From a virus (lineage: Duplodnaviria; Heunggongvirae; Uroviricota; Caudoviricetes), in IMG/VR virus record IMGVR_UViG_3300028048_000122: 15,722 nucleotides of DNA. The stretch is one strand, 5' to 3'. The notes beneath the pieces are model-generated. The model was not told where the DNA came from. It saw only the letters and a program-made list of their open reading frames with translations, and searched no databases. A program made the position numbers and the translations under genes. Below, piece by piece: positions 3,986 to 14,595 of the stretch. Within the stretch, counting starts at the first letter, position 1. Every line of letters begins with the position of its first letter.

Positions 3986-4781
3986 GGGCGAGTACCTCCT
4001 CGGTAAGTTTTACGAATGCCTTGCTGGCCTTACTGTTGGGCTGACGGCGCGTAACGGGCTCGGATTCGTTAATAGCCTTCGCGACGGCTGCGCGATTATC
4101 TGGTATACGTGTTTTCAGTACGTCATCGCCCCATGCCTGACGGATAAACGGTTCTACCTTATGCGTAGAACTATCGTTATCGTAGGTGCGATTAAGGAAT
4201 ATGCCGGCAATCTTAAGCTCGGGGTTATCCTCGCGGGCATCAGAAATGAACTTCAAAGCAGTGTCAGCGCCTTCCACCGAGTCGGATTCCGCTATGGTAG
4301 GAATAAGAGCGTAATCGGTGGCTCTCAAGATGGCGCTCATCTCGTTACCGTAAGTCGGCGGCGTGTCAATAATAATGTAATCGTAATGATCAAGCTCGGC
4401 TATCTGATCAAATACACGCTTGAAGCTCTTAAGGGCTTTGGACGCGTTAACCGAGAAGATGTAATCATAACACTGGTTCTTCAGCTGCTTTCCGCCGACC
4501 AGAACATCCACGTTCTTATATTGGCCGGCGGGCGGCTTAAGATAATCCAGCGGATTAGGCTTGGAAGCTTCCATCACGACATCGGTTAGATAGTCACCTA
4601 ACGCGCCGCGACCATTGCTGATTTCCAGTCCGAATTTAGTCGCGCAGTTTCCTTGTGGATCCGTATCCACTAACAGGACGTTATGCTTGCGGCTGATAAT
4701 GTCCACCATGGCGGCGGCACTGGTAGTCTTACCAACCCCGCCCTTGTTGGACGTAATCGTAATAACGATCGGTTTTTTCAT
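3969..4781 (-). CDS. parA: ParA/Soj family partition ATPase
   Basis: Deviant Walker A SNKGGVGKTT, LLVDTDPQGN, Walker B YIIIDTPP, GIFLNR, C-terminal EPV....PNSKASKAF. Confidence 0.94.
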   Translation of the reverse strand: MKKPIVITITSNKGGVGKTTSAAAMVDIISRKHNVLLVDTDPQGNCATKFGLEISNGRGALGDYLTDVVMEASKPNPLDYLKPPAGQYKNVDVLVGGKQLKNQCYDYIFSVNASKALKSFKRVFDQIAELDHYDYIIIDTPPTYGNEMSAILRATDYALIPTIAESDSVEGADTALKFISDAREDNPELKIAGIFLNRTYDNDSSTHKVEPFIRQAWGDDVLKTRIPDNRAAVAKAINESEPVTRRQPNSKASKAFVKLTEEVLARVNIR

Positions 4782-4840
4782 AATAACTTACCCCCATAGG
4801 CTATTAAAAATAACAGTTATAACTTAAATAATATAACATT

Positions 4841-4851
4841 ATTATACTTTT
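4841..4851 (-). promoter_or_regulatory. candidate sigma-A -10 element for parAB (AAAAGTATAAT on the minus strand)
   Basis: ATTATA at 4841-4846 reads TATAAT on the minus strand, ~60 nt upstream of the parA start; no convincing -35. Confidence 0.5.
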
Positions 4852-4936
4852 TTCAAGTATAGCCGATAAAAGTATGTAAATGAAAACCCGAAAAGTGATA
4901 CAATAGAAACTAGAAAAGTATAATGCTGATACTTTT
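4843..4936. repeat. cluster of AAAAGTAT/ATACTTTT sites, including two inverted repeats
   Basis: ATACTTTT 4844-4851; TATACTT-n5-AAGTATA 4843-4861; AAAAGTAT 4868-4875; variant AAAAGTGATA 4891-4900; AAAAGTAT-n7-ATACTTTT 4914-4936. Confidence 0.7.
4896..4924 (+). promoter_or_regulatory. candidate sigma-A promoter(s) for the dnaE-helicase operon
   Basis: Extended -10 TG-A-TACAAT at 4896-4904 and a perfect TATAAT at 4919-4924, upstream of the AAAGGAGG RBS at 4943-4950. Confidence 0.55.
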
Positions 4937-4961
4937 TTGGAGAAAGGAGGATAAACAGAAA

Positions 4962-5430: not shown

Positions 5431-8400
5431 ATGAATAAGTATTACCCATTGCATGTACATACTGCTGGGGGGAGTGTAGGAGATTCCGTATTAACTATTC
5501 CGGAATATATTGCTAGAGCTAAGGAGTATGGACTGGATGCACTGGCTATTACGGATCATGGCTCTCTCAACGCAATGTATGAATTTTATGATGCCTGTAA
5601 GAAGGCTGAAATTAAACCTATCATCGGTATGGAAGCTTACGTTACCGATGATAATACCATCAAGGATACCGAGCATAAAGCCGGCTCTTCCTTCCATTTG
5701 ATTTTACTGGCTAAGAATGAAGAAGGTTTACGTAACCTGGTTAGTATTCATAATAACGCCGCTATCGACGGCTTTTATTATAAGCCGCGCACCGATTGGG
5801 AACACCTGCAGAAATGGGGCAAGGGCATCATCGCCTTATCAGCCTGTGTCGCCGGCGAAATTCCTCAGGCTATCCTTGAAAACGATGCCGACAAAGCCTT
5901 AGAACTTATCGACTTCTATAAGGGAGTATTCGATGAGTTCTACTTGGAGTTACAGCCAGGCTCTTTCGATGAACAGAAAACGGTCAACGAGGCATTAATC
6001 GAATTAGCGGCCGAAACCGATACTCCATTGGTTATCACTAACGACATTCATTATCTGGATAAGGAAGATGCCGTACGTCATGACTACCACGTAAAGCTGG
6101 GGCGCAGAAGTAAGAAGCTGGATGAGCAGATGATTTATCCTGATAGCTGCTACTGGTTCATGGACATCGAAGCTATTAAAGAAAACATGTCCATGGACGA
6201 GTATATTTTAGAGGAGGCTTTGAACAATGCCGCCCACATCGCTGAAGTATGCAACGTCGAAGTAGATGACTCATTGCATATGCCCCAGTGTGTAGACTTG
6301 CCGGAAAGCGTTACGGAAGAGGAAGCTCTTTACGAAATTTGTCACGAGCGCTTGGAAGAGCTGATTAAGGACAAAGACAATGCTCAGGTTTATATTGACC
6401 GCTTAGAACACGAACTCGAAGTCATTAAGCAGAAAGGCTTCTGTGGGTACTTCCTTATCGTGGCGGACTATATCGAATGGGCGCGTTCTCAAGGAATTCC
6501 CGTAGGCCCGGGGCGTGGAAGCGCCGCAGGTTCACTGGTAACCTACCTGTTGAATATCTGTCAGGCAGACCCCATCCAGCATGGACTGATGTTCGAACGT
6601 TTCTTGGATCCTTGCCGCGCAAGTATTCCAGATATCGACACGGATTTCGGAAGTTCTGGCCGCGACAAGATGTTTGATTATATGGTAGAACATTATGGCT
6701 ATGAACATTGCGCTATTATCTCCACTATGATGACGCGCAAAACCAAGGGGGCTATTCATGATGCTGCCCGTATCTTGGGCTATGAGCCAAAAGTAGGCAA
6801 CGAAATCGCAGCGCTCATCCCCGATGTTTATTACGGTGATGACGGCAATCAGAAGAAAGATTTGGATATCAAGACTTCCTTGGAAGTAGTACCTGAGCTC
6901 CAGAAAATGCAGAAGGCTTATCCGGACATTATCAAATTGGCCGGAGAACTGGCGGGGCTTCCATCAGCTAAAGGGATTCATGCTGCCGGCGTATTAGTTA
7001 GCCCGGTAGACTTAACTGAAGGAATGCCGCTCATCAAGCCTAGCCGTGAAGGTATTTTAGCATCCGCGCTGACATTGGAGGATGCTGAAAGACAAGCGGT
7101 CAAATTTGATTTCTTAGCTTTAAGCCATCTGGATATCTTAAAAGCCGTGGAAGATATGATTGATTGGCATTTTGATTTCCGTAACGAAGAATTATTCCAT
7201 GATGAAAAAGTTTGGGCCACTATCGGTTCCAATAATACTACTGGAATTTTTCAGATCGGAAGTAATACTTATAAAGCACGCATGCCGAGATTGGTACCGA
7301 CTACGTTGGACGAACTTGCTGCTTGCCTGGCCCTAGTTCGCGGCCCGTGTATTTCCAATAAGACGGACGAACTCTACATGCAGATTATTGAAGGTAAGGA
7401 AAAGATCCGTAAGGTGCATCCTATTTACGATGAAGTTATGAAAGCCACTAACGGGATTATGATATTCCAAGAGCAGATTATTAAGCTCATCGTAGCATTC
7501 GGCTTTGACTTGCCGACAGGATACACCGTGATGAAGTATGCACAGAAAAAGAAAGTGGAAAAACTTAAGGAATTCCGCCCTAAGTTTATCGAACAAGCTA
7601 AGACTAAGCAGTGCAATGAAAAGACTGCTAATAAAATCTTCGACATGATCGTTGACGCAGGAAAATACAGCTTCAACATGGCTCACGCTATCTCTTACGG
7701 TTCTATCACTTATGCCAGCGCTTATCTTAAGACGCATTATCCTTTGGAATTTGCCTGCGCCTTGTTGACTGATACATGGAGCCGCGGCAAGGATAAGGAA
7801 TATAAGGCCGTTTACGAAGATTGTGTCCGTAACGGTATTAAGTTCCTGCCGGCCAGCGCCAAGGAGAGTGAATGGAATTTCACGATTGAAGACGGCAAAA
7901 TCCGCGTAGGTTTATGTGCTATTAAAGGCTTGGGCGAAAAAGCCGTGGAAGTTCTCGCGGCGCATACCGAAGATCATTACGAGACTATCGCCGAGTTCGT
8001 AGAATGCCTGAATGAAGGAGAACCTCGGGTATTCAATAAGAAGGCCATGACCGTGGCTATTTATAGCGGATTGTTTGATTACCTGCTTACAGCCGATGAT
8101 ACGAGAACTGACCTTTATCAGCAGTATCTCGATTATCGCGGAGGTAAGGAAGAAGTGCCGGCGGAAATCAAGCTGGGCACTAAGGACTTCACCATTCATC
8201 CGGATGATGATAAGGCCACCTTGGAGATAGCATTTAGTGCGCAGCAATTCGTGTACAGCCAGATTAACTCCATGGAATCAACCAACTGGCGCCGTGTCAA
8301 GAATCATAATCTGTTTACCGAAGCCTACGGTATCATTCAGAAGGTAAAGAAAAGTAAGGATGCTTACGGCGATCAGATGGCTGAAATCACCATCGCTATG

Positions 8401-8547
8401 GGCGACGGCATAGTGGACGGAACCGTCGCTTATCCCGAGCTTAAGAAGTATGCCAAGCAAATCCGTAAGAATTCCCGTATAGTATTTTCGGGACTTAAAC
8501 GTAACAATAATGCCTGCACTATCGGTTCGGTAGTAAAGGCCGATTGA
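5431..8547 (+). CDS. dnaE: DNA polymerase III alpha subunit (DnaE family, C-family polymerase)
   Basis: PHP domain (LHVHT, ITDHG, GMEAY, SACVAGE, TNDIHY), GPGRGSAAGSLV, FERFLDP, PDIDTDF, GIHAAG, KFDFLAL, YSFNMAHA, IRVGLCAIKGLG; 1038 aa, no intein or intron seen. Confidence 0.97.
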   Translation: MNKYYPLHVHTAGGSVGDSVLTIPEYIARAKEYGLDALAITDHGSLNAMYEFYDACKKAEIKPIIGMEAYVTDDNTIKDTEHKAGSSFHLILLAKNEEGLRNLVSIHNNAAIDGFYYKPRTDWEHLQKWGKGIIALSACVAGEIPQAILENDADKALELIDFYKGVFDEFYLELQPGSFDEQKTVNEALIELAAETDTPLVITNDIHYLDKEDAVRHDYHVKLGRRSKKLDEQMIYPDSCYWFMDIEAIKENMSMDEYILEEALNNAAHIAEVCNVEVDDSLHMPQCVDLPESVTEEEALYEICHERLEELIKDKDNAQVYIDRLEHELEVIKQKGFCGYFLIVADYIEWARSQGIPVGPGRGSAAGSLVTYLLNICQADPIQHGLMFERFLDPCRASIPDIDTDFGSSGRDKMFDYMVEHYGYEHCAIISTMMTRKTKGAIHDAARILGYEPKVGNEIAALIPDVYYGDDGNQKKDLDIKTSLEVVPELQKMQKAYPDIIKLAGELAGLPSAKGIHAAGVLVSPVDLTEGMPLIKPSREGILASALTLEDAERQAVKFDFLALSHLDILKAVEDMIDWHFDFRNEELFHDEKVWATIGSNNTTGIFQIGSNTYKARMPRLVPTTLDELAACLALVRGPCISNKTDELYMQIIEGKEKIRKVHPIYDEVMKATNGIMIFQEQIIKLIVAFGFDLPTGYTVMKYAQKKKVEKLKEFRPKFIEQAKTKQCNEKTANKIFDMIVDAGKYSFNMAHAISYGSITYASAYLKTHYPLEFACALLTDTWSRGKDKEYKAVYEDCVRNGIKFLPASAKESEWNFTIEDGKIRVGLCAIKGLGEKAVEVLAAHTEDHYETIAEFVECLNEGEPRVFNKKAMTVAIYSGLFDYLLTADDTRTDLYQQYLDYRGGKEEVPAEIKLGTKDFTIHPDDDKATLEIAFSAQQFVYSQINSMESTNWRRVKNHNLFTEAYGIIQKVKKSKDAYGDQMAEITIAMGDGIVDGTVAYPELKKYAKQIRKNSRIVFSGLKRNNNACTIGSVVKAD

Positions 8548-8560
8548 GGAGGGTCTAAAA

Positions 8561-9961
8561 TTGCTTACCGCAATTTATAATATCAAGAATGCCGGCAAGC
8601 GCTTCGGCGCCGTGACGGAGATGCTGGAGAAAATCCAGAGAGGTAATAAGGTTCAGGTCGATGAAGGAACGATGTTCGGAAACATCAATTCAGCCTTCAT
8701 CGACATCTTCCAGGCATTTGATATGCTGGATTATATAACCGACCAAAGTAAGCTTATCGGAATCAAGATGGTCAAAGACATGTCCAAGATGGCTTATGAC
8801 CAGTATCGGTCCATGCGGGCGACGACGGATCGCCCGTTAACCGATTATATTTCGATCTTCTCCAATATGAAGAGTCTGACTGAGACGCTGAATAGCAATA
8901 CGTCGTTGGATTACCTGTCTTCCTACAACTTGGATAAGGACCATTTCTCGCATTGGAGCAGCGGGGCCAAGACAGTAAGCGCCGAAACTCTTAACAGCGT
9001 CTTTGCGCATATTGAGTATTCGGGTAGGTTCAACCTGGTCAGCATCAATTGTGGCACGGGCGAACAGCTGTTGGAATTTAAGAGACAGCATCCCGATGCT
9101 AACATGTATGCCATCAGTGCCAGTACGTATTCTCCGTTAGAGAAGGAAGAATATAATCAGTTCAATCGTTTTCTTTTGGGCGGCTTAAAAGGTATCAAAT
9201 CCGATAACGCCGCGTTCGACGTAGCCGTGGTAACACCGTGCATCAGTTTTACCCGCTATGAAGACGAAGTATTCGCGCCGGAAGAGAAAACGTACTTCGA
9301 CCGCGCGTTCAGCTGGCTTCGCCGCGGCGGCATAATGATTTACGTTGTGCCGCGCTTTTGTATCACTAAGTCCATGGCCACATTCCTGGCCAAGAATCTG
9401 GACAATATTCATATTTACGCCGCGCCAAACATGGAAGGCCATAAGGCCGTCGCCATAGTGGGCCGCAAGAAGGAAAGCATCTTCCGCGAACTGGATGCCG
9501 AAGCGTTCGCCCGCTTGCGTAACGTGTTCAACACGCCGGATCTCGTAGAAGAATCCGAAGACGTAGCATTCAGTCTCCCGAAAGGGATGATTACCATTCA
9601 GAAATTCCGTGGCGGTACGTTGGATGACGTACAGATGGAATCCATGATGGAAGACTCCGCCGCCATGAAAGATTTCTGGAAAGAACAGAAAGTGGAGAAG
9701 CTCTCGGAAAATTCGGCGCATCCACTTCTCCCGTTCAGCGTAGGACAGCTCGGCCTGGTATTGACCTCTGGCTGTCTCGATGGCGTAATAGAAGAAACTG
9801 GCAACTGTTCTCATGTTGTCAAAGGACGAGTAGTTAAACGAGTCGATACGGATAGAGAATTCAATGAGGACGGCACAAGAGTGCAGATTTCCTCTACGAC
9901 ATCTAACCGCGTCGAGATATCGATGTTTTTGCCGGACGGAACATTTAAGTGTCTGGCATAA
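8561..9961 (+). CDS. class I SAM-dependent methyltransferase-fold protein (DUF6094-like), catalytic motif degenerate
   Basis: Motif I-like SINCGTGEQL; motif IV position reads DVAVVTPCI instead of NPPY; motif VI-like AFSWLRRGGIMIYVVP; C-terminal PLLPFSVGQLGLVLTSGCLDG; GAGGAGG RBS and TTG start. Confidence 0.7.
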   Translation: MLTAIYNIKNAGKRFGAVTEMLEKIQRGNKVQVDEGTMFGNINSAFIDIFQAFDMLDYITDQSKLIGIKMVKDMSKMAYDQYRSMRATTDRPLTDYISIFSNMKSLTETLNSNTSLDYLSSYNLDKDHFSHWSSGAKTVSAETLNSVFAHIEYSGRFNLVSINCGTGEQLLEFKRQHPDANMYAISASTYSPLEKEEYNQFNRFLLGGLKGIKSDNAAFDVAVVTPCISFTRYEDEVFAPEEKTYFDRAFSWLRRGGIMIYVVPRFCITKSMATFLAKNLDNIHIYAAPNMEGHKAVAIVGRKKESIFRELDAEAFARLRNVFNTPDLVEESEDVAFSLPKGMITIQKFRGGTLDDVQMESMMEDSAAMKDFWKEQKVEKLSENSAHPLLPFSVGQLGLVLTSGCLDGVIEETGNCSHVVKGRVVKRVDTDREFNEDGTRVQISSTTSNRVEISMFLPDGTFKCLA

Positions 9962-9982: not shown

Positions 9983-10900
9983 ATGTCATATTCATTAGCG
10001 GTTGGCAAGCAGCCGACTTTAAGAGCCAATATCGTAGCCGTAGATAATCAGCGTAATCTGGGAATCGCGTTCTTTAGCGCATTCGGTTATGCCTCCAATA
10101 TGGATGGCATCTGCAAGGAACTCAATCTTCGTAGTAAAGATATCTGCTTCGGCAGTCATTACTACAGCACCAATCCCGGCGGGCGCTATGAAACGATCGT
10201 GTCCCGCCTGCATAATTCTGATTATGCGCATTTGGTAGCTTTTAAGAAAGATCGTTGCTACACGGATGAGCGAGCCAACGAAGAGATTATGGAAGGCTAC
10301 GTATTCATTGACTCCGAAGAAAACATTCCCTACTTGGATACGTTCACCGCGTCCATCGAAACCGACGAAGAAATCCCGCAGCAGTTAATCGATGGATTTT
10401 ATGACAAGCTCTATAAGCTGTCGCCACTGCCGGTGATTAAAGAATGGAGTTCGTATCTTATCCATCAGCTGGAAGCGTACAATATGCTCGTGCCACTTAA
10501 GGTTACCAGCAGCGACCCGAATCATAAAATGTACGTTTTCGCTTTCAACGTAAAGGTACGTGACCTGCAGCAGCTCATTACTCAGGGATTGGCCAATGAC
10601 CGTATCGAAATCAGCCATGACCATAACGGCGTATCCGAAACCATGCGCAACGTAGAAGGTTTGGATTCTTACTTGGCCAGCTTCCGTGACGTATTGGCGC
10701 GTCGCATTCAGAATTCCTTCGTGCCGCATTTTATCCCTGGACAGGATGAATATTCTCCTATGCTCGAAGAGTTGGTGGAGTATGAAACCTACAAGGGAAA
10801 ACTGTCGTTATATGACGCACAGAAAGATGTAGTGCAGGCAACCTGCAATGCTTTAGGCAAACAGAAAGCTACATTCATTATAGGAGAAATGGGAGTGGGT
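9983..10900 (+). CDS. SF2 (SNF2/DEAD-like) helicase, exon 1 (306 codons, ends inside Walker A: ...FIIGEMGVG)
   Basis: Ends with the Q-motif-like LYDAQKDVV and ATFIIGEMGVG. The unspliced frame stops two codons later (AGA TAA). Joins in frame to 12397. Confidence 0.9.
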
Positions 10901-10929
10901 AGATAAGAATAGTTTCATGGTAATAGATA

Positions 10930-10953
10930 GACATAGGAGTTGATTCTTATGTT
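10930..10953 (+). promoter_or_regulatory. hairpin sequestering the SD and AUG of the homing endonuclease ORF
   Basis: GACATAGGAG-TTGA-TTCTTATGTT forms a 10-bp stem (3 G-U pairs) containing AGGAG 10935-10939 and ATG 10949-10951. Confidence 0.65.
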
Positions 10954-12079
10954 GATATTACAAAATCTCGAAGAAATCAAAAACGAATATTTAAAAGGTA
11001 AATCCCTCAGACAGCTTGAAAAAGAATATGGCTACGACAGAAAGATAATCTCTCGCGAGCTAAAAAAATACGGAGTTAATATTAAATTCCGCTTTAACCG
11101 GGAGTTTTATAGCAAAGCTCTTGAGCTTCGTAATGAGAAAAAATCTTTGACGGCAATCAGCAGAGAAGTAGGTGTGGACAGACACACTTTGGCAAAATGG
11201 TTTGAAAGCGAAGGCGCTCGTACCATTAAGCATAAAGAACTAAATACTTCTCCTGCTACTCAGAGTGTTCTTGAAAAATATCAAGAAGGAATGTCTGTCA
11301 TAGCGATAGCCAAAGATATTGGCAGGTCTTCCAACTATGTTTGGGAAACATTGAGAAATTATGGTGTTATCGATCAGAATAGAACTTCAAGGAAATATTT
11401 CTTTGATGAATCTGTTTTTGAAGAAATTGATACCGAGAAGAAGGCCTACTGGCTTGGTTTCTTATATGCTGATGGTTATGTGCCAGAAGATTTTAAGGGC
11501 ATAGAAATAGGCCTTAAGGCACAAGACAAAGGGCATCTTGAAAAATTCTTAGATTTTCTCAATATAAATCCTCGACCAGAGATAAGTACGAGAAACGTAA
11601 AAATAAACGGAAAGATTGCGAAAGCATGCCGGATAACTGTATGCAGCAATCGTTTGGCCCATGACTTAGCCAAGCACGGATGTGTTCCTCAAAAATCTCT
11701 TGTCTTGGAATTTCCAAAATGGTTGGATGAAGAACTACTGCCTCATTTCATGAGAGGATATTTTGATGGGGATGGGAGCTTATCTCTTCCAAAGCCACCA
11801 AAAGAAAGTCGCCGCCCTCAATTGCAATTTGGAATTGTGGGGACGGAAGAGTTTATAAATGACTATGAGGGTTATATGGTTGACATCGGTGTGCTTCACC
11901 AATGTGCAAAGCTACGCCCAGCTGGGCAAGCATTTCAGACCCGTCATGGTGGAAACAAACAAGCAAAAAAAGTTTTTGATTTCTTATACAAAGATTCAAG
12001 TGTTTACTTGGATCGAAAATATGAACTATTCACTGCCGTCCTTGGTGGAGACACCAAGAGACTATTAACGGGGAATTAA
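10949..12079 (+). CDS. intron-encoded double-motif LAGLIDADG homing endonuclease with N-terminal HTH repeats
   Basis: KAYWLGFLYADGYV and HFMRGYFDGDGSL are the two LAGLIDADG helices; KYGCVPQKSL-like segment KHGCVPQKSL; YLDRKY near the end; three HTH-like repeats in the first ~140 aa. AGGAG then ATG 10949 (TTG 10940 is an alternative start). Confidence 0.92.
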   Translation: MLILQNLEEIKNEYLKGKSLRQLEKEYGYDRKIISRELKKYGVNIKFRFNREFYSKALELRNEKKSLTAISREVGVDRHTLAKWFESEGARTIKHKELNTSPATQSVLEKYQEGMSVIAIAKDIGRSSNYVWETLRNYGVIDQNRTSRKYFFDESVFEEIDTEKKAYWLGFLYADGYVPEDFKGIEIGLKAQDKGHLEKFLDFLNINPRPEISTRNVKINGKIAKACRITVCSNRLAHDLAKHGCVPQKSLVLEFPKWLDEELLPHFMRGYFDGDGSLSLPKPPKESRRPQLQFGIVGTEEFINDYEGYMVDIGVLHQCAKLRPAGQAFQTRHGGNKQAKKVFDFLYKDSSVYLDRKYELFTAVLGGDTKRLLTGN

Positions 12080-12396
12080 ACTGGGAGGGGTAGCGGCCAG
12101 AAGGCCGCCCCTAATCAGAGTCCGAAGGCGCCGTATAAAACGGCTAAACCATGGTAACATGGCGACGGTAAGTATGCTTACCGGTCAGGCGCAACGCATA
12201 GCGGGTGAAATAATCCCGCCACGAGGCCCCGTCACTTCAAGATATAGGCTTGAACATGTGGATTTAACCCACCACATGCCTAACGTTATAACGAGGGTGA
12301 AAAGATATGCTATGCTGGGCTGGAATTAACCAGCCGATGAAAATGAGGGAAACCTCCAGAGGGCGAGATAAAAAGCTCGCCGTTAATAACAATCAG
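12035..12396 (+). ncRNA. group I ribozyme core (IGS to omega-G)
   Basis: IGS GCC 12035-37. P2 CTTGGTG-GAGA-CACCAAG 12041-58. P3 ACGGGG 12068-73 / CCCCGT 12227-32. P4 CTGG 12081-84 / TCAG 12115-18. P5 GCGGCC-AGAA-GGCCGC 12093-108. P7 A-(C)-GCATA 12194-200 / TATGCT 12306-11, preceded by J8/7 AAGA. P7.1 GCGGG/CCCGC 12201-19. P9 hairpins 12318-35, 12345-56, 12362-81. Confidence 0.88.
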
Positions 12397-14595
12397 AAAA
12401 CTGCTTTATCCATTACTTCAGCGTTTGCGCATAATGCTGATAAGAAGATCATGACTAATATCGTTATGTGCCCCGGTCACTTGGTAGAAAAATGGAAAAA
12501 GGAAATCGAACGCTTGGCGCCGCTTTCCGATGCCGTCATCGTAGACAATTTTGACAAATTGATGGCTCTTAAGCAACAGATTAAATCTAAGGTTCGCAAC
12601 CGTCATCTCTGGCTCGTTATCTCCAAGGAAACGGCCAAGTTCGGCTATAACGAACGTCCCGCAGCAGTATTCTCTAAGGCTGCCGGAGCCAAGGTAGGTC
12701 ATCCCGAAGGCGTATTCTGCTGCCCTGAATGTGGTCAGCCTCTTTATAGCGTACACTATGAAGGTCGTGGCCGTTGGCGTACACAGGTTCGCGATTACTT
12801 TACCTCTGCCGATGCGATGTCTTCCAAAAAAGCTGAAAATGCTTGCTGCATGAATACCGTCATGAAATACGATCCGGAAACGGGTTCAGAAGTAGAGGTA
12901 GCATGTGGCACGAAACTTTGGGAAGCGGCAGGTAAAGCCGGCGATGACAGCAAGTGGGTTAATCTCGGGAAAAGCGTAGGCTGGATGATGCGTGAGCATA
13001 TCGATTCTGAAATCAGACGTATCTCCGGTCTGAATAATCCTTCCAAGGAAGATTCTGCCCGCCTGTTCGTACTGGCTAAAGTTAAGCAGGACGGTATTCC
13101 GAGTTATCCAACGCCGATTAAGTACCCCTTGGGTAAGTACATCCGTAAGAACTTTAAGGGATATATCGACTACGCCTTAGTCGATGAGGTTCATCAATTA
13201 AAGGGGCGCGATTCCCTGCAGGGACAGGCTTTCGCCGACCTGGTATCTACTTCCCGCCATGCTTTATGTTTCACGGGTACGTTCCTTAACGGCTATGCCT
13301 CGGGTATCTTCTACCTCCTGTATCGCCTGTATCCGGGGCTCATGAAGAAGGAAGGCTTTGACTTCGATGGCGGCGGCGAACAAGAATTTGTCCGTCAGTA
13401 CGGCGTATATCGTCAGTCTGCTTGGCATGAATTCCAGAACGGTCAGCAGGGGAACCGTCAGGGGCAGATGAGCTTTAAACAGCTCCCAGGCGTATCTCCC
13501 ATCGTATTCACCAAGTTCCTGCTGGAAAATGCTTCATTTATCAGCCTGGAAGATATCGGAGCAGGTCTGCCGGGTTACGAGGAAATTCCCGTTCCGGTAG
13601 ATATGGACGCCGACCTGGCTGCCGCTTACGAGCGTCTGGAATACAATACGCGCAGCGCTTTCAGCCGTTTCCATGGCGGCATGAAAATCTTGGGACAGGT
13701 AGTGCAGATGCTCTCTATTTATCCCGACAATCCGTATGAACAGCCGCCGATTATTCATCCAGAAACGGGCAATATCGTGGCTACACCGGAAGAACTTTCT
13801 AAGGATGTACTCCGCAATAAGGACCGCGAACTTATCCGTATCGTACGTGATAAGGTAGAACACGGCGAGAAAGTACTGGTGTATTATTCCTGGGCCAATC
13901 GTACTGACCTGGGCAAACGTATCCCGAAAATTCTCAAGGATGAAGGCATCGAAGCGATTACGATGACGGCAAGCGTAAAGAACTCCGACCGCGAGCGTTG
14001 GATTCAGGAGAAAGTAATCGACAAGGACGTAGACGTATTGGTAGTTAATCCGACGCTGGTAGAAACCGGCCTGGATCTCCTGGATTTTACTACTATTATC
14101 TACTACGAAGTGGGTTATAATCTCTATACCATGCGTCAGGCTTCTCGCCGTAGTTGGAGACTTTCCCAGACGCACGACGTACAGGTATATTTCCTGTATT
14201 ATCGTCAGACCGTTCAGGAACAGGCTCTCAGCTTGATGGCCACCAAGCTTCAGGCTGCGATGGCTATTGAAGGCAAGTTCAGCGAAGAAGGATTGAACGC
14301 TATGTCCAATAACGAAGATATCCTGACGCAGATTGCCGCCAGTGTCGCCGACGGCATTAAAGACACAGTGGACGCTCAGGTGTTCTCCAAGAGCCGGGTA
14401 GAGAATACCCAGATCGAACATAAAGAAGATACGCGGCTTATTCTTAAGAGCCGCGACGAACATGTAGCGACTGTCTTGGATTCCTATGAAGAGTCCAAGA
14501 AGAAATCCCGTAAGCGGAAAATGGCTAGTAAGGCACTGGGCCTTAACGAGCGCCGCCTGATGGGTAATCTTTCACGGCTTTTCGCGGCCGTTTGA
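12397..14595 (+). CDS. SF2 (SNF2/DEAD-like) helicase, exon 2 (732 aa; spliced product 1038 aa)
   Basis: Starts KTALSIT (end of Walker A); motif Ia VMCPGHLVEKW, motif II ALVDEVHQLKG, motif III FTGTFLNGY, motif IV KVLVYY, motif V NPTLVETGLDL, motif VI RQASRRSWRLSQ. The 12307 ATG in the ORF track lies inside the intron P7 strand and is probably not a real start. Confidence 0.92.
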   Translation, partial: KTALSITSAFAHNADKKIMTNIVMCPGHLVEKWKKEIERLAPLSDAVIVDNFDKLMALKQQIKSKVRNRHLWLVISKETAKFGYNERPAAVFSKAAGAKVGHPEGVFCCPECGQPLYSVHYEGRGRWRTQVRDYFTSADAMSSKKAENACCMNTVMKYDPETGSEVEVACGTKLWEAAGKAGDDSKWVNLGKSVGWMMREHIDSEIRRISGLNNPSKEDSARLFVLAKVKQDGIPSYPTPIKYPLGKYIRKNFKGYIDYALVDEVHQLKGRDSLQGQAFADLVSTSRHALCFTGTFLNGYASGIFYLLYRLYPGLMKKEGFDFDGGGEQEFVRQYGVYRQSAWHEFQNGQQGNRQGQMSFKQLPGVSPIVFTKFLLENASFISLEDIGAGLPGYEEIPVPVDMDADLAAAYERLEYNTRSAFSRFHGGMKILGQVVQMLSIYPDNPYEQPPIIHPETGNIVATPEELSKDVLRNKDRELIRIVRDKVEHGEKVLVYYSWANRTDLGKRIPKILKDEGIEAITMTASVKNSDRERWIQEKVIDKDVDVLVVNPTLVETGLDLLDFTTIIYYEVGYNLYTMRQASRRSWRLSQTHDVQVYFLYYRQTVQEQALSLMATKLQAAMAIEGKFSEEGLNAMSNNEDILTQIAASVADGIKDTVDAQVFSKSRVENTQIEHKEDTRLILKSRDEHVATVLDSYEESKKKSRKRKMASKALGLNERRLMGNLSRLFAAV

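Follow-up and report, generated by a model that had tools for sequence, protein, structure and literature searches.

A predicted mobile group I intron between the Gly and Lys codons of Walker A in an SNF2-like helicase gene of a Caudoviricetes contig

Positions 10901-12396 of the Caudoviricetes contig IMGVR_UViG_3300028048_000122 (15,722 nt; hereafter the window, i.e. the whole stretch analysed) very probably constitute a group I intron that is mobile and resembles the phage IA type; it separates the Gly codon from the Lys codon of Walker A in a gene for a 1038-amino acid (aa) SF2/SNF2-like helicase. This reading is supported by the architecture of the locus, the boundaries of the insert, an endonuclease gene within it, intron-less alleles and the recurrent occupation of the same site; catalysis and endonuclease activity are predicted from sequence.

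Three open reading frames (ORFs) were found on the + strand, at 9983-10906 (307 aa), 10940-12079 (379 aa, with a TTG start) and 12307-14595 (762 aa), in agreement with a preliminary description of this DNA, which regarded them as two parts of a helicase separated by an endonuclease and expected the locus to be miscalled as a pseudogene or as three genes; gene callers indeed report three ORFs. The 5' boundary (10883-10906) reads GGA GAA ATG GGA GTG GGT/AGA TAA and the 3' boundary (12391-12408) reads AATCAG/AAA ACT GCT TTA, with slashes here and below marking exon-intron junctions. Deletion of the insert (1496 nt), which had been proposed to restore both GEMGVGKT and a 1038-aa frame, joins 9983-10900 to 12397-14595 in a 3117-nt ORF with a single terminal stop, and its 1038-aa product contains GEMGVGKT and, further on, DEVH. 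The sole alternative boundary with an identical product is shifted by +1 and has an A at both ends. The message would, as had been described, stop two codons into the insert if unspliced. The claim that all helicase motifs are present was borne out for GEMGVGKT, DEVH and Helicase_C, the last being clear in Pfam on exon 2 (E=2.2e-10), but SNF2-rel_dom on exon 2 alone scored 24.2 bits, just below the cut-off of 24.9; full-length homologues have precomputed PF00176, PF00271 and PF04851 on record.

Using exon 2 as the query, 448 homologues were retrieved. The best one (P0001) is uninterrupted, matches exon 2 with 97% identity and is 1038 aa in length. Most of the top 120 (P0001 and about 85 more) are single chains of 1007-1065 aa with GExGxGKT near residue 300, and the family is thus not consistently encoded as two proteins at the break, an outcome that the preliminary description had considered. 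P0001 is encoded on L001, a 153-kb metagenomic contig that lacks the insert and has in common with the window the gene order ParA, DnaE-type polymerase, DUF6094 methyltransferase, helicase and NlpC/P60 protein. The joined window sequence is collinear with that of L001, with no indel at the junction, and the ratio of nonsynonymous to synonymous substitution rates (dN/dS) between the two is 0.086, indicating that the helicase gene is under purifying selection. The DnaE-type polymerase ORF of the window (5431-8547) also encodes 1038 aa, but it is unrelated to the joined helicase and the equal length is a coincidence. Megablast of the whole gene against phage and plasmid collections gave no match.

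Boundaries of the kind expected of group I introns, with an exon ending in U and an intron ending in G, had been proposed for the insert and were confirmed. U10900 lies opposite G12035, forming a U-G wobble at the 5' splice site, and the last base of the intron is G12396; relatives with inferable exon boundaries likewise end in G. In L002, L074, L078, L079 and Bacillus phage AR9 the exon GGU is opposite a conserved GCC, and the pairs on the intron side of P1 covary, being AG with CU in the window, AUUAUU with AAUAAU in L002, and AGUGA with UCAUU in L078 and L079. Ligation of the exons would create the junction GAGTGGGT-AAAACTGC.

Positions 12065-12396 form a contiguous core which holds P3 to P9.2 (Table 1). 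When 14 cores were aligned with MAFFT (alignment A1) and folded with RNAalifold, P3, P4, P5, P6, P7.1, P8, P9 and P9.2 were all returned unprompted, with compensatory double changes in 30 of the 45 pairs. Paired cells amounted to 93%, compared with 34-43% when the 3' partner was displaced by 1-3 columns; with shuffled columns the figure was 70%. The P7 pairing, which crosses P3 to give the group I pseudoknot, is invariant in the 14 sequences; L074 shows one compensatory change in it (A-U to G-C). In P7.1, 4 of 5 pairs show compensatory changes; this hairpin is extended in many relatives, and the extension may be P7.1a, while no separate P7.2 was found between P7 and P3'. Elements resembling the consensus of the Rfam group I model RF00028 are J3/4 AAUUAA, the P4/P5 region GCUGGAAGG ... 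UAAUCAGAGUCC, and J8/7 with P7, AAAAGAUAUGCU. The ATG at 12307, which starts the spurious 762-aa ORF, falls inside the 3' strand of P7. The core helices with their covariation, the P3/P7 pseudoknot, the P1 wobble, the terminal G and the match to the covariance model R1 (see below) together support the group I assignment made in the preliminary description.

Table 1. Features of the interrupted helicase gene and of the predicted intron in the window
Feature	Position	Strand	Remarks
Helicase exon 1	9983..10900	+	306 codons; ends GGA GTG GGT (Gly of GxGK); aligns to residues 1-306 of uninterrupted homologues
In-frame TAA	10904..10906	+	ends unspliced reading frame two codons into intron
Helicase exon 2	12397..14595	+	732 codons + stop; starts AAA ACT (Lys-Thr of Walker A)
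P1 5' strand GGU/AG	10898..10902	+	5' splice site after U10900; pairs with CUGCC 12033-12037
Putative homing endonuclease ORF, 376 aa from ATG	10949..12079	+	three helix-turn-helix repeats and two LAGLIDADG motifs
Internal guide sequence CUGCC (P1 3' strand)	12033..12037	+	within UGCCGU element conserved in relatives
P2 hairpin CUUGGUG-GAGA-CACCAAG	12041..12058	+	minimum-energy fold; relatives have an equivalent hairpin of other sequence
P3	12068-12073 with 12227-12232	+	encloses J3/4 through CCACGAGG; RNAalifold, pair statistics
J3/4 AAUUAA	12074-12079	+	inside P3
P4	12081-12084 with 12115-12118	+	inside P3
P5	12088-12112	+	inside P3
P6	12127-12186	+	inside P3
P7 5' strand A[C]GCAU	12194..12199	+	bulged C, then G-C pair; partner AUGCU 12307-12311
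P7.1	12201-12219	+	extra hairpin between P7 and P3'
Invariant CCACGAGG	12219-12226	+	inside P3
P8 with three inserted hairpins	12233..12299	+	alignment fold, pair statistics
J8/7 AAAAGAU and P7 3' strand AUGCU	12300..12311	+	resembles group I S element AAGAUAUAGUC
P9 (12315-12359), P9.2 (12362-12381) with conserved loop AUAAAAAG, 3' tail, terminal G (12396)	12315..12396	+	
Upstream DUF6094-type methyltransferase gene	8561..9961	+	context; Pfam PF19587 E=6.9e-7; order kept in intron-less L001

L002, a distant homologue of the helicase (about 49% identity), has the same arrangement, is interrupted at GGT/AAA, and has long conserved blocks in common with window 12065-12396 in its non-coding 3' part. 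An exact 16-mer from one such block, scanned over viral contigs, gave 38 loci, of which about 24 are true relatives; roughly a third lacked the flanking elements and were set aside as chance matches. In blastn against named phages the 3' end of the intron matched Yersinia phage phiR1-37, Bacillus phages AR9, PBS1 and BpSp, and others, the part from P9 to the end being 81-85% identical to intron 3' ends in phiR1-37, AR9 and PBS1. Both AR9 matches fall within gyrA. The covariance model R1, built from 14 relatives that include the two AR9 gyrA introns but not the window, matched window 12065-12238 over its full length (model positions 1-143) with 93.7 bits (E=2.8e-23) and the two gyrA introns of AR9 with 130-132 bits; it gave no match to the T4 td and nrdB introns at E<=1.

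The ORF inside the insert appears to encode an intact double-motif LAGLIDADG homing endonuclease with predicted cleavage activity. Its 376-aa product carries LGFLYADGYV and MRGYFDGDGSL, i.e. two LAGLIDADG motifs with acidic residues in one chain, and matches HTH_38, HTH_23 and LAGLIDADG_3 (E=2.3e-6) in Pfam and the endonuclease family PHROG 4645 (E=4.8e-61). An AGGAG at 10935-10939 lies nine bases upstream of the ATG at 10949. The ORF is thus placed within the loop of P1, and its 3' part overlaps the guide sequence, P2 and the 5' strand of P3, with its stop in J3/4. The endonuclease ORFs found at this site in L078, L079 and L002 are homologous to it, with 30-43% identity.

Among 23 helicase loci on viral contigs, L074, L078 and L079 have an intron exactly between residues 306 and 307, and an identical arrangement, broken at the same codon boundary, was seen in the independent assemblies L002, L003, L074, L078 and L079, so that several distant lineages of the helicase have the G/K site occupied. 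In addition, fragments of roughly 690-750 aa starting just after Walker A make up about 35 of the 120 closest database proteins, and some of these fragments keep a translated intron tail (e.g. ...DKKLAANNSQ/KT). Alleles with contiguous exons, for which a search had been proposed, were found as well. The window is about 92% identical to L001 on both sides of the insertion point but about 60% identical from roughly -168 to +42 nt, a drop of the kind that a co-conversion tract would produce. A second intron-less allele, with exons close to those of the window, is present in the cattle-gut DNA runs X2, X3 and X5 (two studies); here 19 nt differ, GGGTAAAACTGCTTTATCC in place of which TGGCAAGACTGCGCTCAGT is found, with nine differences that are all synonymous, both versions encoding VGKTALS. 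Such clustered changes would fit co-conversion from a donor allele and a variant target site alike. In L080 (4611-5832, on a 241-kb viral contig) the helicase homologue is intact at Walker A and has an insert of roughly 1.2 kb at motif II, after ...FIADE; with its group I-like P/Q elements and LAGLIDADG ORF, this insert is probably a second intron site in the helicase family.

These features suggest the following course of events. Because of the stop two codons into the intron, the primary transcript would yield only a 307-residue fragment. The predicted fold of the RNA is a P1-P9.2 ribozyme. Attack by an external guanosine just after U10900, followed by exon ligation after G12396, would restore GEMGVGKT and the full helicase. 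The putative LAGLIDADG endonuclease would cut intron-less alleles at the conserved site, and during repair the intron, along with some of the adjoining exon sequence, would be copied into the cleaved allele (homing).

Several observations weigh against a functional group I intron at this site. RF00028 did not match the window at its gathering score, nor did it at E<=10, and in a gathering-score scan it detected no family member among ten relatives' loci, AR9 introns included. P1 of the window is short, with 5 contiguous pairs and a G-G mismatch at -4, and its strands are 1.1 kb apart. P7 receives little support from covariation because it is nearly invariant. A convincing P10 was not identified, since inspection of the 3' exon AAAACU showed only one potential pair with the nucleotides 5' of G12035. 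Public RNA data included a single metatranscriptome run with any of the stretch, represented by three short contigs, none of them at the junction, and to our knowledge no member of the AR9 gyrA-type family has been shown to self-splice. The Rfam result is not decisive, since the model misses all members of the family, including those of AR9, and since the T4 td (40.3 bits) and nrdB (35.7 bits) introns used as controls also score below the gathering score of 50. As the T4 introns are nevertheless detected at low E-values and the family of the window is not, the family is a divergent branch. The covariance-model search suggested in the preliminary description thus failed with the general model but succeeded with R1. 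The metatranscriptome contigs lie within the endonuclease ORF (11640-11963) and exon 2 (13983-14204), away from the junctions, and may stem from DNA carry-over, so that the run is uninformative on splicing or expression. A scan for promoters and terminators around the intron gave results at chance level.

The weak P1 of the window, the P10 that is not evident and the metatranscriptome contigs without an RNA junction would also be expected of a decaying or splicing-defective intron that has left the helicase gene here as a pseudogene, the more so as intron-less alleles coexist in the habitat and helicase function could be supplied from elsewhere in the population. This is improbable, given that the window copy retains all core helices, that no frameshift interrupts the endonuclease ORF or either exon, all three being open, that the exons are under strong purifying selection and that R1 scores highly over its full length. 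Phages are known in which a split gene flanks a free-standing homing endonuclease gene, and the three ORFs reported by gene callers could be taken as such a case, with the two helicase halves translated separately and no RNA splicing involved. Such a gene would not account for about 330 nt of non-coding RNA in which group I helices are conserved and covary, and exon 2 has neither a start codon nor a ribosome-binding site at the junction, its first in-frame ATG being within P7. The break moreover parts GxGxG from KT inside a single P-loop, and most homologues are single proteins. A split gene of this sort is therefore very unlikely.

Since the window is metagenomic and related introns occur in the same samples, misassembly of an intron into the helicase gene was also considered. 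The same codon boundary in five loci from other samples, the exact restoration of the frame and a run containing 99% of the stretch's sampled words (though possibly the source sample) speak against it, and we regard an artefact as hardly credible. Two other types of insert were rejected: an intein, by the in-frame stops, and a group II intron, by the lack of a GUGYG start and of a domain V-like end and by a core that is of group I.

The td and nrdB introns of phage T4 belong to subgroup IA, have been shown experimentally to self-splice and carry the genes for I-TevI and I-TevIII. Like the predicted intron of the window, they are phage group I introns at conserved sites of DNA-metabolism genes, contain a homing endonuclease ORF and score below the Rfam gathering score. 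P7 of td, A[C]GACUA paired with UAGUC, has the same layout as that of the window, with a first pair, a bulged C, a G-C pair and an extra hairpin before P3'. The differences are that i) the P7 sequence is GACUA with UAGUC in T4 and GCAU with AUGC in the window, ii) the T4 ORFs are located in the P6a loop and are of the GIY-YIG or HNH type, whereas that of the window is a LAGLIDADG ORF in the P1 loop, and iii) td has both P7.1 and P7.2, whereas one covarying hairpin was found in the family of the window.

The two introns in gyrA of AR9/PBS1 (g044; KU878088, in which the coding sequence is a three-piece join) belong by R1 to the same RNA family as that of the window, with which they share UGCCGU, AAUUAA, CCGAAGG, CAGGCGCAACGCAUAG, CCACGAGG, AAAAGAUAUGCU and GAUAAAAAGC. 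In both cases the 5' exon ends in the Gly codon GGU, and AR9 is a jumbo phage. Unlike the intron of the window, those of AR9 are compact, contain no ORF, reside in gyrA and have a shorter P8 and P6. The paper on AR9 transcription mentions an intron in g189 only.

Introns in core genes of gut phages are also known. In Delta and Zeta crAss-like gut phages, core replication genes are split by group I introns with LAGLIDADG genes, which complicates annotation (Yutin et al. 2021, PMC7886860). These resemble the predicted intron of the window in interrupting core genes of gut phages and in their LAGLIDADG ORFs, but the host genes listed are those for the major capsid protein (MCP), PolB, primase and AAA ATPase, an SNF2-like helicase is not named, and the phage lineage is different. 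Introns of IA type at highly conserved sites of recA, nrdE and nrdF have been described in the Bacillus cereus group and its phages, where splicing in vivo was demonstrated, the guide pairs with the last 4-6 exon nucleotides, flanks are co-converted asymmetrically, and endonucleases undergo cycles of gain and loss (Tourasse and Kolsto 2008, PMC2504315); their host genes and RNA lineages differ from those of the window. A literature search for a group I intron in the SNF2-like helicase family found no report naming it as host gene. The novelty suggested in the preliminary description was overstated, since members of the RNA family are annotated in AR9 gyrA and introns in gut-phage core genes have been published. 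The intron is well supported, but it would work like the classical phage group I introns and is an ordinary kind of element that entails no new mechanism.

The window derives from cattle-gut metagenomes. Relatives of the helicase with 43-50% identity are encoded on viral contigs of 220-263 kb, rated 94-100% complete, all of which have a large terminase, one of which has terminal repeats, and each of which has one or two introns of the family. The window also encodes ParA, ParB, ThyX and a DnaE-type polymerase. Judging from these genes and the genomes of the relatives, a jumbo phage or phage-plasmid is the most probable host element. The preliminary description had assigned the helicase to a mobile element; a conjugative element is not favoured, as the relatives sit on jumbo-phage genomes. 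A helicase profile search of genome contigs detected only distant relatives (43% identity or less) and gave no host assignment.

Other genes on the related contigs are interrupted or may be so. In L001 a further member of the intron family (11617-11987; R1 match at 11660-11842, 60.9 bits, E=2e-14) sits between a 246-aa ORF and a 506-aa Peptidase_M23 ORF. Since the M23 protein is a single 738-aa ORF in L002, the gene in L001 is probably split by an ORF-less intron. In L002 (1-1782) the DnaE-type polymerase is a 535-aa ORF following a separate fragment, compared with 1038 aa in the window and L001, and may be interrupted. The large terminase of L068, on a 263-kb viral contig, is spread over two separate open frames, of 435 and 178 aa, with about 2 kb between them (about 239525-242004), and may contain another intron or an intein. 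L021 has a canonical group I intron on the - strand (4687-4956; RF00028, 72.9 bits) as well as a family member invisible to Rfam, showing that the two intron types coexist in one phage.

Family introns located after a Gly GGU codon in other genes were observed in L004 (7609-7909 and 2922-3160), L027 (2886-3122), L029 and L013 (3617-3863). Several of these are in or beside P-loops, with 3' exons beginning AAAACG..., GTAGGAAAATCTGGAAAGACT or GGTGCAGCAGGTTCGGGTAAGAGC; AAA ACG follows a family intron in both L004 and L027. One intron appears to lie at a GyrB-like GG/KF motif and others at the GyrA motif HPHG/D. With its fixed GCC guide sequence, the family seems to be confined to GGU codons. In run X5, cattle-gut contigs of related introns match only parts of the core within window 12110-12396 and differ in the P6, P8 and P9 inserts, which indicates that several family members circulate in the same cattle-gut samples.

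A broader interpretation is possible but doubtful. The family might be a large, Rfam-invisible lineage with a non-canonical P7 (GCAU with AUGC), invariant CAGGCGCAAC and CCACGAGG, and confinement by GCC to GGU codons, which spreads among the glycine-rich catalytic motifs of jumbo-phage genes (G/K of Walker A in several ATPases, GyrA and GyrB), and the nine synonymous changes in the intron-less allele might then reflect selected resistance to the endonuclease, not a passive scar of co-conversion.

Because gene callers split the helicase into three ORFs, and about a third of its closest homologues are truncated proteins arising from the same intron, the annotation of these jumbo-phage genomes, and likewise the clustering of their proteins, contains a systematic error at the helicase gene. 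The Rfam group I model misses the whole family, including the annotated introns of AR9, and the family alignment could seed a better model. Intron-plus and intron-minus alleles coexist in cattle-gut samples and are set apart by synonymous changes that cluster tightly at the target site, so that the locus offers a clean natural example of homing dynamics.

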